A stretch of DNA of 64,000 bases from an uncultured Acidobacteriota bacterium (GCA_963777605.1 CAVZRV010000013.1:128001-192000), one strand, 5' to 3'. Shown: positions 13,495 through 21,916, counted from the first letter of the stretch. Translations and numbers: made by a program. The notes: generated by a model not told the origin, from the letters alone.

Positions 13495-13836
13495 ATGCAA
13501 CTAGATACACTCGACAAGAAACTCAACGACATCTACGCCGGCCGAGTGGTCCGCAAGGACCTCCTCCACCGGGTTAAAAAGGGCACTAACATTCCGTCTT
13601 TCGTACTGGAGTTCCTGCTGGCCCGATATTGCGCGAGCGACGATCCGGACGAGATCCAGGCAGGGATCGATGCCGTCTTCGAGACGCTGCAGAAGCACTA
13701 CGTCCGTCCGGACGAGTCGAACAAGGCCCAGTCCCACGTCCAGCAGAAGGGGAAGCACAAGTACATCGACAAGCTCCAGGTCCGCTGCGTGGAGCGGGAG
13801 AAACGCCACTGGGCCGAGATGGAGAACTTCGACTCC
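13495..13836 (+). pseudogene. brxL: N-terminal fragment of BREX Lon-like protease BrxL
   Basis: LDKKLNDIYAGRVVRKDL..NIPSFVLEFLLARYCASDD..YVRPDE matches the BrxL N-terminus; similarity ends after about 114 aa. Confidence 0.75.
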
Positions 13837-13990
13837 GCAGTTGGAGGGCGACAAATCACCTTACGCCGAAGGTCATCGTCAGGCTTTCCGCACCAAAGGC
13901 CCTTCAAAGCGCGCGAAGGAACTGATTCGTCGGGTCAAAGCAGCAAAAGCGAAGAAATACTGAGCCGGCGACCGCACTCGGCAGCTGGTA

Positions 13991-14587
13991 CTAGGACTTG
14001 GCCGGCTTGAAATTCTCCGGGATTGTGCCGAGCAACCCGAGAAGGTTTTCAAGTGTTCTTGCCATCCATTCGTTCAGTTCGGGCCAGGTTTCAAGCCTGA
14101 AGATCTGGGATGGTCGTCTCAGGCTGAGGAGGCTTCCTTTGCTGTCTTTGGGGAGCCAGACGACTTCACCGAGCGGAGAGAGTTGCTCTTTGAGCTGACT
14201 GCGAAGCCGATCGTCGATCCGGTCGAACCAGGATTCAGCGCCTGGCCCTGTCAGGCGCACCCAGATTCCGGAGGTGCCGCTGAGCACGTTCCAGAGCACC
14301 AGCCGAATCGGACCCGGACCGGGGATCTCCTTTCCAATGCTTCGATTAGAGGGTTTGCCGAGCTTGATAGAAGGGTCCCGGTTGGCCATGTACTCGTGGA
14401 ACTGCGTCCAGAACCGCTCATGGAGGGCCGCGGCGTTGACCCGCGGTCGGGCCGAGTCATCTCCCCAGAACGACGAATGAGTGAGGCGGCATGTGGATTC
14501 GTGGGATGTAGACTCGATTGCCACCCTGGCGCGTCCATGGCATGCGCGCGGCGATAGCAGGAAGATCGTAGACCATGCCGGTGTCAC
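13991..14587 (-). CDS. DUF4268-like domain protein (start uncertain, possibly a fragment)
   Basis: ERFWTQFHEYM...WPELNEWM pattern typical of DUF4268. Confidence 0.5.
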   Translation of the reverse strand: MTPAWSTIFLLSPRACHGRARVAIESTSHESTCRLTHSSFWGDDSARPRVNAAALHERFWTQFHEYMANRDPSIKLGKPSNRSIGKEIPGPGPIRLVLWNVLSGTSGIWVRLTGPGAESWFDRIDDRLRSQLKEQLSPLGEVVWLPKDSKGSLLSLRRPSQIFRLETWPELNEWMARTLENLLGLLGTIPENFKPAKS

Positions 14588-17158: not shown

Positions 17159-18168
17159 ATGAGCAAACGGCAATTGGAACCGATCGAACGACTCTCCTAC
17201 GAAGCCACAAGGCTGTTTCGAGAGCACCCACCGGTGATTCGCGACCGCAACAAGCAGGTCGTTTTCGAAATTGCCTGCCCGGAAGGATCGCGGCACCGTG
17301 GAGAGATTGTCTACTCCCGTTGGATATCGATGCCGGTTCCGGCCCAAATGGATCCAGTGCGGGCCGTTTCACGAGTTGAGGCCAGCAAGTCAATTTACGA
17401 TTACGGACCGGTTGCTCCTGGCGCGGTGGAGTGGCATGTAAACTTTGCCGATTCGGAGCTGTTCGGCTTTTACGCGACAGGACTTTTTGCCCAGGACGAA
17501 CTGCAGGTGGCCGAGCATCCGATCCTGGGCTCCCTTAAGGAGGCTCTCCGGGCGTCGAATCGACCAAGACCTCACAGTCGAGGTGGGACGCCCGACCCCG
17601 ATTCTCATCTCGGGTGCGGAGCGGCGCTGCCGGGTGGCGATCGACCCGAATCCTGACGAGGGGCGCCCGTTTGGACTCTATGGCAACCGGTTCGCGCAGG
17701 CCCCCGAGGACGCCGTTCGCGGGGCGACTGCCCGGATCGATCCGCCGACGGTCAGCAACCTGGTCTGCATTGCCGCCCCGGCCTGTGGCTTGGGGAACTA
17801 CTCGCGCGAGCAGATTCAGTTCATTATGGAGACGGCCTACACGGGTTTTCGGGCGGCCGTTCTGGAATCGGGGCGAGCTCACGGAGACGAACGACCGGTG
17901 GTTGTCCACAGCGGGCTTCTGGGGTTGCGGCGCCTTCGGGGGGAACCGGGTGCTGATGGCTACTCCTCCAGGTTCTTGCCGCCGAAGCTGCTGGACTGTG
18001 AGCCGACTTGTCTTTCACACGGTCGATGCTGCGGGGTCCGCGAAACTGGCGGAGGCCTTGGAACTGATTCAGTCGCGGCCGGCGACCGAACGCGTCGAAA
18101 ATACCGAGGCTCTGGTTGACTGGATTCTCGGTCACGGCTTCCGGTGGGGAATCAGCGACGGCAATTGA
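17159..18168 (+). CDS. Poly(ADP-ribose) glycohydrolase (PARG)-like protein, frameshifted
   Basis: WHVNFAD..LFGFYATGLFAQDE (QEE-type catalytic loop), CIAAP, AYTGF, GFWGCGAFGGN across three overlapping frames. Confidence 0.75.
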
Positions 18169-18236
18169 GTAGCCGCACAAAGCCACGCCGGGAATGCTGA
18201 AGGGGGCCCGAACATTACCAGGTCTCAGCGAGTCGT

Positions 18237-19004
18237 TCAGCCAACTGTCGAATGCAGGCGGGAACCATTCCGATGATTGAGTTGGCCGGCCGGGATTTTG
18301 TCTGCTCCCCATCGGGCCCCTCCGATGGAGCCCACCAGTACCGGGCAGTAATTGGCCGGCCCGGCAAACTCCAGGGAGCTTTCCAGTGCCTTCTCGAAGC
18401 TTTCGGCCCGATCGAGGAAATGAACGGCGGCGGCGAAGACCTGCGGAGCAAAGCCACCCCTTGAGAGTTCATTCCTCGGGAATCCGAGACGCCCGCCGGG
18501 CAAGGCCACAGGAGGGATCCTTCCCAACGCAACTCCCCAGTCGAATCCCCGGATCAGTCGTCGACACAGTTCGGCAACTGCGGCCGAGACCTCTCCGGCA
18601 ATCGGCGAGTAATGCGTCAGTCGCGCTTCCTCCCGGGCAAAATCGGCAACCTCGGTATCTGTGAGGAATCCGGCTGCAGCCAGGACGGAGGCCCGGTGGG
18701 CGGGGTTGCACCCTCCGGTCAGGCCGCCCAGATCGTCGTCCGTTCGTCGTGCTGCCTCGACACGATCGATACCCTGTTCGAGATAATGGAAGACCCGGGT
18801 GAACACCTCCCCGGTGTCGAAGGCATCGGTATGCCACCAGTCGAGGTACCGGTTGAACAGGTCGTCCGGATCAAAAGCGCTTCGGCTCAGGAGAGTCTTG
18901 GCGACGAACGACGCCATTCGGATCGGCCCGCCGTTTCGGTCTCCGGCAGCAAGTCCAAGAAGCAAGCCCTGGGCGCGGTTTCGGTATTCATCGCGAAGAT
19001 TCAT
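18237..19004 (-). CDS. ADP-ribosylglycohydrolase (DraG/ARH) family protein, divergent
   Basis: GLLLGLAAGD, YLDWW..AFDTG, EARLTH, VGSIGGARWG. A late frameshift may extend the true end to 18215. Confidence 0.8.
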   Translation of the reverse strand: MNLRDEYRNRAQGLLLGLAAGDRNGGPIRMASFVAKTLLSRSAFDPDDLFNRYLDWWHTDAFDTGEVFTRVFHYLEQGIDRVEAARRTDDDLGGLTGGCNPAHRASVLAAAGFLTDTEVADFAREEARLTHYSPIAGEVSAAVAELCRRLIRGFDWGVALGRIPPVALPGGRLGFPRNELSRGGFAPQVFAAAVHFLDRAESFEKALESSLEFAGPANYCPVLVGSIGGARWGADKIPAGQLNHRNGSRLHSTVG

Positions 19005-19039
19005 CGGAAAAGGATAACCTGGAAGGTCGCGCTACGGTG

Positions 19040-19071
19040 AACCTGGGTTGAAGATGCTTAACCTGGGTTGA
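19040..19071 (+). promoter_or_regulatory. Putative upstream activator sequence: AACCTGGGTTGA x2, 20-bp period
   Basis: Exact 12-bp direct repeat of a pseudo-palindrome at 19040-19051 and 19060-19071, about 110-140 bp upstream of the predicted start site. Confidence 0.55.
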
Positions 19072-19153
19072 TGACTTCGTATATGTTTTTGGAGATGATC
19101 GACTCGATAGGTAATCTATTAAATGCAATGACTTAGCCGAACATCGCATCGAG

Positions 19154-19170
19154 TTGGCATGGCTCCTGCA
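19154..19170 (+). promoter_or_regulatory. Sigma54 (-24/-12) promoter
   Basis: TTGGCATGGCTCCTGCA has exact GG-N10-GC spacing and lies upstream of an operon encoding a sigma54 activator; predicted +1 about 19181. Confidence 0.8.
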
Positions 19171-19180
19171 GTAGATGCTC

Positions 19181-19263
19181 TCGGGTCCGGGTGAGAGCGG
19201 CGGTTACCCCCAGAAACCATGCGGGAGCTGACCTCCTGCAGGCCGCTTTCTGCCCGGGCCGGA
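19181..19263 (+). ncRNA. Candidate structured RNA or leader (three-way junction)
   Basis: Stems 19184-92/19252-60, 19193-201/19242-50, 19202-05/19215-18 and 19220-27/19233-40 fill the gap between predicted +1 and the RBS. Confidence 0.5.
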
Positions 19264-19276
19264 ATGGAGGAGTGTC

Positions 19277-20227
19277 ATGCAGTTTCCAAAATCAGTCTTG
19301 AATCCGTTGACCCTGGGCGAGCCGATGACAAGTGATGCGCTCACGGTCTATCCCGTCCTGGGTGCTTCCGAAAGTGCCATCCAGCTGTTCGATCTCGACG
19401 AGGCCCTTGCGCAGGGTTGGATCGAGATCGGCGAGGTTTCTGAATCGGGAAACGTCCCCGAATTAGGCGTGATCAACCAGTCGCCCCATCGGGTCATCCT
19501 CTTTGACGGGGAAGAGCTCGTCGGGGCCAAGCAGAACCGGATCGTCAATGTCACGATCGTGGTCGCTCCCTTTGCCAGGCTGAGGATCCCGGTGTCGTGC
19601 GTGGAGCAGGGACGCTGGCGGTGGCACAGCCGTCACTTCGACGCGGGCGAATTTGCCTACCCGAGCCTGCGACGGGACAAGTTCGAGCGCGTCAGTCAGA
19701 ACTTGGAGATGCGGCAGGGATTTGCCGCCGACCAGGGGATGATCTGGCACGACATTGCCGCCAAGTCCGCCCGCATGGGCGTTCACAGCGAAACCGGCTC
19801 GATGCGGGACATCGGGGCGCGGCATTTCATTGATGACCGCCAGATCCAGAAGGAGATCGCGCACCAGCCCCGCCAGGTCGGCTATCTCGCCTTCATCCGG
19901 GACGGCTTCGCCGGTGGCGACATCTTCTCGTCGTCTGAAATCTCGGCGCGGAAATTTTACAAGCTGGTCCGGACATATTACCTGGACTCGCGCGATCCTG
20001 AAGCCGAGTTCCGCCCGGTCCCGGCCGATGAAGTGATGGGTCGCATCGGGAGCAGCGCGGTCGAACCGGTCGAGAGCATCGGGGAGGGAAGTGACTTCCG
20101 ATTCCGTCAGCGCGACATCCAGGGATCGCTGACCCAGGTCGGTGAGATACTGGTCCACCTGGCGGTTTTCCCCGTTGTCCGGGATGGCTTCCGGCGGCCG
20201 GCACGACCGCATTTCCGGGTTGACTGA
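19277..20227 (+). CDS. ARPP-1 (DUF6569) family protein
   Basis: DGEELVGAKQNRIVNVTI, IPVSCVEQGRW, DQGMIW; GGAGGA RBS. Confidence 0.85.
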   Translation: MQFPKSVLNPLTLGEPMTSDALTVYPVLGASESAIQLFDLDEALAQGWIEIGEVSESGNVPELGVINQSPHRVILFDGEELVGAKQNRIVNVTIVVAPFARLRIPVSCVEQGRWRWHSRHFDAGEFAYPSLRRDKFERVSQNLEMRQGFAADQGMIWHDIAAKSARMGVHSETGSMRDIGARHFIDDRQIQKEIAHQPRQVGYLAFIRDGFAGGDIFSSSEISARKFYKLVRTYYLDSRDPEAEFRPVPADEVMGRIGSSAVEPVESIGEGSDFRFRQRDIQGSLTQVGEILVHLAVFPVVRDGFRRPARPHFRVD

Positions 20228-20311
20228 AACCGAAATTCGCCATAGCGTTCCCGGACGAGCCCCTTCAGATCAGCGGAGGGGCCCGGGAGCGCTCAGGGAA
20301 AGGATTTGGAA

Positions 20312-21916
20312 ATGCCACGGACTGCACAAGGAACACTGCTCACCTTCACCGGGTTCCATGACCCCTATTCCGACGGACCCGTCGAAGGAAGCCGCCAGCC
20401 GGGCCCGATTCTGAGCCTGCTCGGAGAGCGCTCGTTTCGCCGGGTCATCCTGTTTTCAACCCCGTCCACCGTGGAAGTGACCGAAAAGACGAGGGAAGCC
20501 ATTGCCGAAGAAGAGCCGGATGTACAAGTCGCGGTTCGGCATCTCGAGCTGCCCGATCCGACCGACTATTCGTCCATTCTCCAAGAACTGCGTCGAAGCC
20601 TTCGGGATCTTGCCGCCTGGAAGCTGGGAGACGTCTTTATTGCCACGGCCTCCGGCACCCCTCAGATGCACGCCTGCTGGATCCTGCTCGTGACGTCCGG
20701 GGAACTGCCGGGTCGCCTCCTTCACGTTCGCCCACCCCGGTTCGTCAGCCGCGACGCACCCATGGTTACGGAAGTCGATCTCTCGGAGCCGGAGTTCTCC
20801 CCTCTGGTGCTCCGGGAGAGCAGCCATTTCCGTGACGTCGGCGCCGATGAACTCGACATGGAGGAGCCGTTTATGTCGGCGTTGGCCCTGCCGAGCGCAC
20901 CTTCGATTGAGCGGTCTCGCGTAGACCGGGTGATCGAAGCCACCTCGCGGCCCGAACCTGACTTGGCGGCAATTTGCGAGCAGGAAGGGATCGTCGGGGA
21001 TGATCCCGGAATGATCGATGCCGTGAGGCGGGCGGTGACCGTTGCGCCTTACGATGAGCCGGTTCTCATTTTCGGCGAAAACGGAACCGGCAAGGAGTTG
21101 ATTGCCAGGCTGATCCACCGGACGAGCCATCGTTCGGGAGGCCCCCTGGTTTCGGTGAATTGTTCGGCGATTCCGGAGGACCTGGCCGAGAGCATCCTGT
21201 TCGGACACAAGAAAGGTTCGTTTACCGGAGCCATTCAGGATGAGCAGGGGAAATTTCGGTTGGCCAATGGAGGCACGCTCTTTCTGGACGAGGTTGGAGA
21301 GCTTTCCTTTGCGATTCAGGCCAAGTTACTGAAGGCGGTTGAATATCAGGTAATTGAACCGGTGGGGGAAGGTCGAGAAAGCACAGTCGATATCCGAATT
21401 GTGACGGCGACGAACCGAAACCTGTGGGATATGGTCGGGTCTGGATCGTTCCGTAAGGACCTCTACTATCGGCTGGTCGGGGCGCTGGTTGAGGTGCCGC
21501 CGCTTCGATCACGTCGCAGTGATATCAGCAAGCTGGCGATTCATTTCCTGGAGGCGTTCTCACGACGGTACCGGACGAGGCGTCAGTTTACTACCGCGGC
21601 GTTGCGTCGCCTGCAACATCACGATTGGCCGGGCAATGTCCGCGAGCTCGGGCACGTGGTTCGGGCGGCCGCGATGCTGGCCCACAGCGGGAAGATCGAA
21701 GCCGACGACATCGAACTGCTGGCCCGAAAGCCCGACCACGATCTTCCGGAACCACACGACGGTTTTTCGGTCGAGAGGTATCTGGCCGAGGTCCGCCGCA
21801 AACTGTTCGAGCGGGCTCTGGAAATCAGTCAAGGCAACCAGGCCGCCGCGGCACGCCTGCTCGGCGTCAGCGGAGCCGCGGTGTCCAAGTTCGTGAACAA
21901 GGAACGGCCCGCGTAA
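20312..21916 (+). CDS. RtcR-like sigma54-dependent activator: CARF-like N-domain, AAA+ and Fis-type HTH
   Basis: LLTFTGFHDPY..GPILSL..DPTDY..ASGTPQMH (CARF-like); GENGTGKE, FGHKKGSFTGA, LFLDEV, WPGNVREL, NQAAAARLLGVS. Confidence 0.88.
   Translation: MPRTAQGTLLTFTGFHDPYSDGPVEGSRQPGPILSLLGERSFRRVILFSTPSTVEVTEKTREAIAEEEPDVQVAVRHLELPDPTDYSSILQELRRSLRDLAAWKLGDVFIATASGTPQMHACWILLVTSGELPGRLLHVRPPRFVSRDAPMVTEVDLSEPEFSPLVLRESSHFRDVGADELDMEEPFMSALALPSAPSIERSRVDRVIEATSRPEPDLAAICEQEGIVGDDPGMIDAVRRAVTVAPYDEPVLIFGENGTGKELIARLIHRTSHRSGGPLVSVNCSAIPEDLAESILFGHKKGSFTGAIQDEQGKFRLANGGTLFLDEVGELSFAIQAKLLKAVEYQVIEPVGEGRESTVDIRIVTATNRNLWDMVGSGSFRKDLYYRLVGALVEVPPLRSRRSDISKLAIHFLEAFSRRYRTRRQFTTAALRRLQHHDWPGNVRELGHVVRAAAMLAHSGKIEADDIELLARKPDHDLPEPHDGFSVERYLAEVRRKLFERALEISQGNQAAAARLLGVSGAAVSKFVNKERPA

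Follow-up and report, generated by a model that had tools for sequence, protein, structure and literature searches.

A conserved three-way-junction RNA, most likely a structured mRNA leader, between a sigma-54-type promoter and the ARPP-1 gene of an Acidobacteriota operon

The 64,000-nucleotide window analyzed here, a stretch of DNA from an uncultured Acidobacteriota bacterium (GCA_963777605.1 CAVZRV010000013.1:128001-192000), carries a gene for ARPP-1 followed by a gene for an RtcR-like sigma-54 enhancer-binding protein, with a divergent ADP-ribosylglycohydrolase (ARG) gene on the other side of the intergenic region (Table 1). Within that region, the span from the predicted +1 of a -24/-12 promoter to 2 nt before the ARPP-1 Shine-Dalgarno (SD) sequence is occupied by a three-way-junction RNA element, whose properties and possible roles are described below.

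Table 1. Features of the ARPP-1 locus, with positions counted from the first nucleotide of the window
Feature	Position	Strand	Evidence or detail
ADP-ribosylglycohydrolase (ARG) gene, divergent	18237-19004	-	Pfam PF03747, E 6.9e-24
Two copies of AACCTGGGTT	19040-19049, 19060-19069	+	Candidate upstream activator sites for the CARF enhancer-binding protein
Sigma-54 type -24/-12 promoter TGGCATGGCTCCTGCA	19155-19170	+	Predicted +1 at 19181
Three-way-junction leader RNA, whole element	19181-19263	+	Fold -51.0 kcal/mol; covariance model R1, 100 bits
Stem 1, 5' arm	19181-19192	+	Partner 19252-19263; G.G mismatch 19183/19261
Stem 2, 5' arm GAGAGCGGC	19193-19201	+	Partner 19242-19250
Hairpin 1	19202-19218	+	GGUU, 9-nt loop, AACC
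Hairpin 2	19220-19240	+	UGCGGGAG, loop CUGAC, CUCCUGCA; 8 bp
3' arms of stem 2 and stem 1	19242-19250 (stem 2), 19252-19263 (stem 1)	+	Bulged U at 19251
SD sequence GGAGGAG (19266-19272) and ARPP-1 ATG (19277)	19266-19279	+	Sequence
ARPP-1 gene, 316 aa	19277-20227	+	Pfam PF20208, E 7.3e-77
CARF-AAA+-HTH sigma-54 enhancer-binding protein gene, RtcR-like	20306-21916	+	Pfam Sigma54_activat 4.6e-62, RtcR 1.3e-9, HTH_8

The activator matches the PADLOC profile RtcR_PspF2--CARF_AAA_HTH over its full length (9.8e-124). It is not RtcR proper, as its score against the NCBIfam equivalog NF038308 is 324 bits and the cut-off is 650; the rtcB gene of the same genome lies on a different contig from the ARPP-1 operon. 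The ARG gene has a weak match, below the cut-off, to the NCBIfam DraG model. Genes for RNase E/G and RNase III are also encoded in this genome. A similar arrangement, in which an ARG-type gene and ARPP-1 are wired to a CARF-AAA+-HTH sigma-54 activator, was observed both in the window (18237-21916) and in another Acidobacteriota metagenome-assembled genome (G010, contig C2; locus L048, 3600-7520), where a PARG-like macro-fold gene stands in the place of ARG. ARG-centered ADP-ribose conflict systems with ARPP have been described by Iyer et al. (2022, PMC9503650). Within the literature searched, this is the one paper in which the ARPP domain appears. The systems resemble the present operon in combining ARG (PARG in G010) with ARPP, and differ in that the passages of that paper drawn on here give Nudix and WYL proteins as the regulators and are silent on RNA elements, in contrast to the CARF-sigma-54 activator and structured leader found here.

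ARPP-1 has a patchy distribution: of the 16 genomes in the window's family, 3 have a close copy, and of the 3 in G010's genus, 1 has the gene, a pattern that is usual for accessory or defence-type genes. More broadly, the PF20208 family occurs in 14 of 61 relatives, and a relative of ARPP-1 in 36 of 401 genomes sampled across the phylum. Elsewhere in the window, a 171-aa ORF (13495-14010, plus strand) matches only the N-terminal ~110 residues of the BREX protein BrxL (Pfam BrxL_N, 6.3e-34; PADLOC BrxL, 3.6e-45, against profiles of ~680-700 positions), and it looks like a truncated BrxL remnant or a stand-alone N-terminal domain.

The promoter call rests on context and conservation, because the -24/-12 motif by itself is no rarer in the window's genome than chance would give (32 observed versus ~27 expected). 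That context comprises the GG -24/GC -12 spacing, an adjacent activator gene, a pair of upstream repeats, and the presence of rpoN in the genome. More specifically, the only place in the 6.73-Mb genome where a AACCNNGGTT pair occurs within 60 nt is upstream of the leader, and the matching upstream place in G010 reads AACCCAGGTT. The AACCTGGGTT repeats are likely upstream activator sites, which the CARF enhancer-binding protein would bind. No sigma-70-like promoter was found in 18900-20400. In addition, among the 32 motif sites of the genome, only that of the leader has so strong a structure downstream: at the other 31, the best fold is -32.6 kcal/mol and none has a z score below -2.0.

The element itself is built on stems 1 and 2, whose 12 and 9 pairs form a near-continuous helix of ~21 bp with one bulge and one mismatch, and this helix is capped by a three-way junction with 2 unpaired nucleotides and two hairpins. 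Its minimum free energy (MFE) lies far below that of dinucleotide shuffles (mean -35.65 kcal/mol, sd 3.4; z -4.51), none of 200 being as stable, and below that of random 83-mers from the same genome (mean -23.4, sd 5.7), none of 300 of which reached -51. No competing alternative to this fold was found. The inner domain folded alone is also unusually stable (z -3.79, 0 of 200 shuffles as good). The G+C content of the leader is 70%, compared with 45% in the rest of the intergenic region. The opposite strand of 19181-19263, when folded, gave an ordinary -37.0 kcal/mol (z -0.38, with 66 of 200 shuffles equal or better). This strand asymmetry of 14 kcal/mol, together with four G-U pairs in the plus-strand fold, points to a structure that exists at the RNA level on the plus strand.

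These results agree with much of what a first-pass annotation of the same DNA had proposed from the sequence. The helices, bulge, and hairpins it described were recovered exactly in the sequence and the computed fold; its claim of RNA-level structure on the plus strand is upheld by the z scores of the two strands, and stability beyond that of shuffles, the lack of which it had said would refute the proposal, was found. It had also remarked that no U-tract is present, and indeed neither a terminator with a U-tract nor any other terminator was found in 18900-20400, nor was any obvious processing signal seen past the leader.

The translation start appears to be left accessible by this structure. 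When the whole 96-nt UTR was folded, the SD sequence was unpaired both in the window and in G010, and the SD pairs with the start of the coding sequence no better than shuffles do (z +0.5). Folds of longer, read-through transcripts behaved differently in the two genomes. That the SD is sequestered, either by early coding sequence or in read-through transcripts, was therefore rejected as an explanation, since the pairing is at shuffle level and the genomes disagree. A leader peptide was likewise rejected: the leader has one AUG (19219), which is not in the ARPP-1 frame and does not occur in G010.

G010 provides the sole homologous leader (G010:C2; loci L048 and L130). Its ARPP-1 is 67% identical to that of the window, and its gene order runs PARG-like gene, promoter TGGCACGAAGCCTGCA, 79-nt structured leader, ARPP-1, activator. 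In G010 the activator gene is broken into two overlapping reading frames (L048, 5920-6930 and 6858-7520), either by a real frameshift or by an assembly error; the G010 leader and ARPP-1 are intact. The register is common to both genomes, in that the structure begins 12 nt past the C of the -12 GC and stops 2 nt short of GGAGG. In each, the -24/-12 motif predicts a +1 at which the 5'-terminal helix would start. The G010 leader has an MFE of -54.4 kcal/mol, with its own three-way fold at -53.0, and an 82-nt stretch that adds three flanking bases reaches -54.5 (z -4.75). The inner domain of G010 folded alone gave a z score of -2.44, with 5 of 200 shuffles as good.

We aligned the two leaders by hand, fitting the alignment to the structure, as MAFFT misaligns the 3' arm of stem 2. 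At the 32 positions paired in the window, 29 standard pairs are found in G010. Fifteen pairs differ between the genomes in this hand alignment. Of these, 6 carry changes in both partners, divided equally between stem 2 and hairpin 1, 6 in one partner, always by way of G-U, and 3 are lost at helix ends. In hairpin 1 all four pairs are altered and pairing is retained, whereas in hairpin 2 the strand GCGGGAG is invariant and 6 of 8 pairs are kept. Where stem 1 of the window has its G.G mismatch, G010 has a C-G pair. Neither sequence nor length is shared by the hairpin loops as a set (9 and 5 nt in the window, 4 and 5 nt in G010), and the unpaired junction nucleotides (A/U and G/CG, window/G010) are conserved at neither position.

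Conservation is unevenly spread along the element. In the MAFFT alignment (A2), the outer arm blocks are identical at 14 of 17 positions (19181-19197) and 14 of 15 positions (19249-19263), with hardly any sequence change in stem 1 and the GAGAG/UCU portion of stem 2. By subtraction, only 17 of 51 columns (~33%) are identical across the inner stretch (19198-19248), against 36 of 98 columns (37%) for the unconstrained spacer and 46% for third codon positions; as the pairs are retained, the fold appears to have persisted even though the inner sequence diverged as far as neutral sites. This pattern of divergence does not depend on the hand alignment. For that alignment, RNAalifold yielded -46.2 and a structure conservation index (SCI) of 0.88, with 0 of 500 column shuffles as good, and the unfitted MAFFT alignment yielded an SCI of 0.44, with 9 of 500 shuffles as good; because the hand alignment was fitted to the structure, the true SCI lies between 0.44 and 0.88. 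Collectively, the comparison is suggestive of a fold conserved with compensating changes, in a set of two sequences that is below the size of a statistical covariation test. The first-pass annotation had pointed to homologous leaders as a check on its proposal, and the single one available, which makes two sequences in all, does show compensatory changes.

The sequence TGCTCTC just upstream of the predicted +1 (window 19174-19180; L048 4777-4783) is identical in both genomes as well, and it could pair with GAGAG, the invariant sequence in stem 2. Were the true start a few bases upstream of the predicted one, TGCTCTC could form an alternative 5' hairpin that competes with stem 2.

The element could in principle be a feature of the DNA. 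According to this reading, which we consider improbable, the element has no RNA function and is a GC-rich inverted repeat in DNA (an operator or a cruciform) or a relic insertion, similar in two genomes through recent common ancestry. The four G-U pairs and the strand asymmetry of the window speak against it, although in G010 the two strands are close in stability, with the minus strand at -50 (z -4.33). The element is known from two genomes of one family only, its 5' arm lies in the initially transcribed region, and GCTCTC just before +1 is conserved too, all as a DNA-level constraint or a relic might have it, but the helices survive 6 double and 6 single changes at the low inner identity given above. 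The arms, which are 59 nt apart, are unlike those of an operator, and the single-copy state of the element does not fit a repeat family.

Regarding copy number, the 141-nt stretch containing the leader occurs once in the window's genome. We built a covariance model (R1) from the leaders of the window and G010, which score 100 and 74.6 bits, respectively, and found that among 150 related genomes it matches the window's genome (G000) and G010 alone. A repeat or MITE identity of the leader was rejected on these two grounds. R1 had no match over the best 80 metagenome ARPP-1 loci, and over 90 further loci (80 from genomes and 10 of CARF activators) it matched L130, which is the G010 locus, and weakly L144; the latter match (24.8 bits, E 0.13) was rejected as chance, as it lies inside open reading frames and has a z score of -1.6. 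A single-protein scan of genome contigs revealed no further homologue.

Two alignment-based scans, one over metagenomes and the other over a single genome of each species, kept their best 80 loci, and across these 160 ARPP-1 loci the leader was found at G010's own locus alone. The loci are distant from the window: top ARPP-1 identity among the best 80 metagenome loci is 46%, and among the best 80 genome loci the contig of G010 alone exceeds 46%. Upstream DNA was shorter than 150 nt at 7 of the 80 metagenome loci and 2 of the 80 genome loci. A strict -24/-12 regular expression matched 1 of the 80 metagenome loci (L060), and a relaxed one 17 of the 80 genome loci, where inspection by eye revealed the leader in L130 and a credible promoter in L151. 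The relaxed expression applied to 30 loci gave 5 matches, with the leader at that of G010 only. Another genome, G006, encodes an activator and an ARPP-1 that is 58% identical, and its contig starts inside ARPP-1, so the leader is not part of the assembly. No description of this leader was found in the literature, in searches aimed at the proteins. The leader is a genuine RNA structure, conserved and not catalogued before, that is known from two genomes only.

Related operons offer a view of how general the element is. Three further ARPP-1 operons (G045, L060, and L151) have a -24/-12 promoter and an adjacent sigma-54 activator without the leader element. The leader of G045 is ~15 nt long, that of L060 is 58 nt (-6.8 kcal/mol, z +0.24), and that of L151 is 50 nt (z +0.48). 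The activators of G045 and L060 match the RtcR/CARF Pfam model, and the L151 activator has no CARF match. Since other ARPP-1 operons with sigma-54/CARF activators have such short, unstructured leaders, the element is an optional, lineage-specific one.

Looking beyond ARPP-1, we detected the CARF domain in 6 of 401 phylum genomes and the CARF profile in 9 of 137 class genomes, so that such activators are rare in this sample. At four distant CARF-activator promoters (L223, L225, L226, and L228), the first 85 nt are not unusually stable (z +0.25 to +1.1). The last of these, L228 (G000:C6:7589-9200), is a second, more distant CARF-sigma-54 activator in the window's own genome (profile E 4.6e-28); its reading frame has one in-frame TGA, and a -24/-12 motif directly past the stop is followed by a short unstructured leader. 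This layout of activator then motif is also found in G031 and G499, and G445 has a -24/-12 motif, on the minus strand, immediately outside one end of its activator ORF. Family searches of the genes downstream of the distant CARF-activator promoters gave nothing informative.

One more distant case does have a structured leader. In G088, whose activator is 53% identical in the best-matched CARF-domain stretch, the CARF activator faces a sigma-54 motif, TGGCATCATGATTGCA (L216, G088:C162, 1140-1248, minus strand). The first 78 nt from +1 adopt a three-armed fold with a 12-bp hairpin (-23.5 kcal/mol, z -2.95, 1 of 200 shuffles as good), and upstream sites (AACCAGGGT) resemble the repeats of the window. 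This leader precedes an unrelated 157-aa gene and then a DEAD/ResIII helicase; it has no evident sequence similarity to the element of the window, and R1 does not detect it. The G088 leader offers at most a hint of a recurring theme.

Comparison with known RNA classes produced no assignment. An Rfam 15 scan of 18000-20500 at E values up to 10 returned four matches (E 6-7.6), all far below their gathering scores, in line with the earlier impression that the element is not a known family. Riboswitches and self-cleaving ribozymes both frequently use three-way junctions, and a small-molecule sensor would be plausible given the ADP-ribose-type chemistry of the operon, as far as this is set out in the passages of PMC9503650 used here. 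Nevertheless, either class is very improbable for this leader and already close to refuted: the two unpaired junction nucleotides both differ in G010, leaving neither a pocket nor a catalytic core, and neither an alternative fold, nor a terminator, nor an Rfam match accompanies them. A riboswitch was rejected for lack of a conserved pocket and a terminator, with the SD free and without any SD-sequestering pairing above shuffles, and a self-cleaving ribozyme because it has no Rfam match and no catalytic core at a two-nucleotide junction. The self-cleavage that the first-pass annotation had suggested assaying thus loses its footing, as 2 unpaired junction nucleotides leave no space for a catalytic core.

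The same annotation had drawn an analogy to Y RNAs, and had proposed that the element partners ARPP-1, serves as a decoy substrate, or supplies the CARF ligand. In this scenario a free ncRNA would be released from the transcript, as a Y-RNA-like or tRNA-like partner, as a decoy, or as a bait that yields a 2',3'-cyclic-phosphate ligand for the CARF domain. The idea draws on real precedent. The Salmonella Y RNAs YrlA and YrlB, according to the part of PMC7790460 consulted, belong to an RtcR-controlled rsr-yrlBA-rtcBA operon. Like YrlA/YrlB, the leader has paired 5' and 3' ends, a long end stem, and a sigma-54 promoter under a CARF-domain activator; the paired ends and compact fold would resist nucleases, and the CARF activator of G088 also faces a three-armed sigma-54 leader. 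Unlike YrlA/YrlB, which form a separate gene between coding genes, it lies directly before the first gene, no Rsr/Ro60 gene was found in its genome, and the searches gave neither a tRNA-like module nor an Rfam match.

More specifically, a search of the window's genome, which is 96.7% complete, with PF05731 (TROVE) gave 0 matches, and control genomes were matched. Neither a tRNA nor a tmRNA was detected in 18900-19500 by ARAGORN, whose design does not extend to partial tRNA mimics, and no 7-nt anticodon-like loop is present among the leader loops of the window or G010. A Y RNA identity was accordingly rejected for the lack of a TROVE/Rsr gene and of a Y RNA model match in the Rfam 15 scan, and the broader analogy is unsupported on these grounds, with no tRNA-like gene in the ARAGORN output either. 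Release of an ncRNA is further disfavored by hairpin loops that vary in size and sequence between the window and G010, by the failure to find a terminator or obvious processing signal downstream, and by the absence of the element from G045, L060, and the four distant CARF-activator promoters. The sister operons with a ~15-nt leader (G045) and an unstructured 58-nt leader (L060) particularly weaken the proposal of an ARPP-1 partner, decoy, or CARF-ligand source, and we regard a released ncRNA as having only a small chance of being correct.

A variant in which the leader is a dedicated sensor or bait RNA for an ADP-ribose conflict system under CARF control has, in our estimate, a slimmer chance still. 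Here, phage attack would lead to cutting or modification of leader RNA made at a basal level; the fragment produced, with a cyclic phosphate end or with ADP-ribose attached, would be the ligand that turns on the CARF activator, and ARPP-1 and ARG would then act on such RNA ends.

We conclude that the most likely identity of the element is a structured leader of the mRNA, specific to its lineage, rather than a novel RNA that stands alone. The first-pass annotation had left the choice between an ncRNA and a leader, and the leader is the half that we favor. The structure is strand-specific, unusually stable, and fills the 5' UTR. As to its function, we tentatively favor, at somewhat less than an even chance, a cis-acting 5' leader of the sigma-54-dependent ARPP-1/activator mRNA that shields the 5' end and stabilizes the induced transcript. 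The start site, the transcription, and every functional step of this model are inferred.

In the proposed mechanism, the CARF enhancer-binding protein would fire the -24/-12 promoter, and transcription would begin at ~19181. The first 83 nt would then fold co-transcriptionally, with the transcript's 5' end included in the closing helix and the SD, 2 nt downstream, left free. With the closing helix starting at the first nucleotide as predicted, the triphosphate-bearing 5' end would be held in a base pair, and its burial in a helix may protect the mRNA from 5'-end-dependent decay of the RppH and RNase E/G type. Such shielding would give a longer or larger burst of ARPP-1 and activator after induction. 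Additionally or instead, the ~21-bp helix of stems 1 and 2 may serve as a processing or protein-binding site.

Protection of mRNAs from RNase E-dependent decay is a classic role of 5'-terminal stem-loops, and those of ompA and papA are known to stabilize bacterial mRNAs. As in these, the helix of the leader would lie at or near the first transcribed nucleotide, upstream of a free ribosome-binding site, and the leader is proposed to be cis-acting. Unlike them, it is a three-way junction of far greater size, at 83 nt and -51 kcal/mol, in which the closing helix is nearly invariant and the 5' end is a predicted one. RppH requires unpaired 5' nucleotides, according to the part of PMC3997798 used here, which also cites papers on mRNA stabilization by 5' stem-loops. 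Given this precedent and the presence of RNase E/G and RNase III genes in the genome, stabilization of the induced transcript is the function we favor. Several considerations weigh against this model. The start site is a predicted one, from a motif that is no rarer than chance, the comparison spans two sequences, and the minus strand of G010 is nearly as stable as the plus strand. A simple hairpin would suffice for plain 5' protection, and the size of the fold and its near-invariant stem 1 suggest specific recognition; moreover, the leader is not a general need, as the related operons of G045, L060, and L151 manage without the element.

For the same reasons, near-invariance of stem 1 and fold size, the main rival to 5'-end shielding is binding or cleavage of the leader by a protein, whether RNase III, ARPP-1, the activator, or another, which would provide post-transcriptional feedback on a self-activating operon. 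We rate this as unlikely, though it deserves consideration ahead of the other alternatives. The arms are near-invariant (14/17 and 14/15) while the inner helices covary, which would fit sequence-specific recognition, yet two sequences cannot part sequence constraint from a short divergence time, and the 5' arm overlaps +1 to +17, where a DNA-level promoter constraint could conserve it. In the modeled fold, the 12 + 9 bp helix spans about two helical turns, a length that would suit an RNase III substrate, and RNase III is encoded in the genome. The rnc and pnp leaders of E. coli are processed by RNase III. The present leader resembles them in having a 5' UTR helix of ~20 bp that could determine the fate of the mRNA and in belonging to an autoregulated operon; it differs from them in its bulge, its mismatch, and a junction cap rather than a loop.

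Taken as a whole, the favored reading, that of a structured leader on an mRNA, makes this an element of an ordinary kind. The importance of the finding would be much greater only if the leader were a trans-acting partner or the source of a CARF ligand; were the sensor or bait reading true, the operon would carry its own alarm substrate. To our knowledge, almost no work on such leaders has been done in Acidobacteriota, and the practical value is modest, as a clean, compact, and testable leader for mRNA 5'-end protection or RNase III control in this phylum. The operon shows that ARG/ARPP systems can be wired to CARF-sigma-54 activators. If 5'-end shielding is its role, the leader would make this ARPP-1/activator operon, which is probably of a defence or repair type and autoregulated, another bacterial operon that tunes an inducible response through the shape of the mRNA 5' end.
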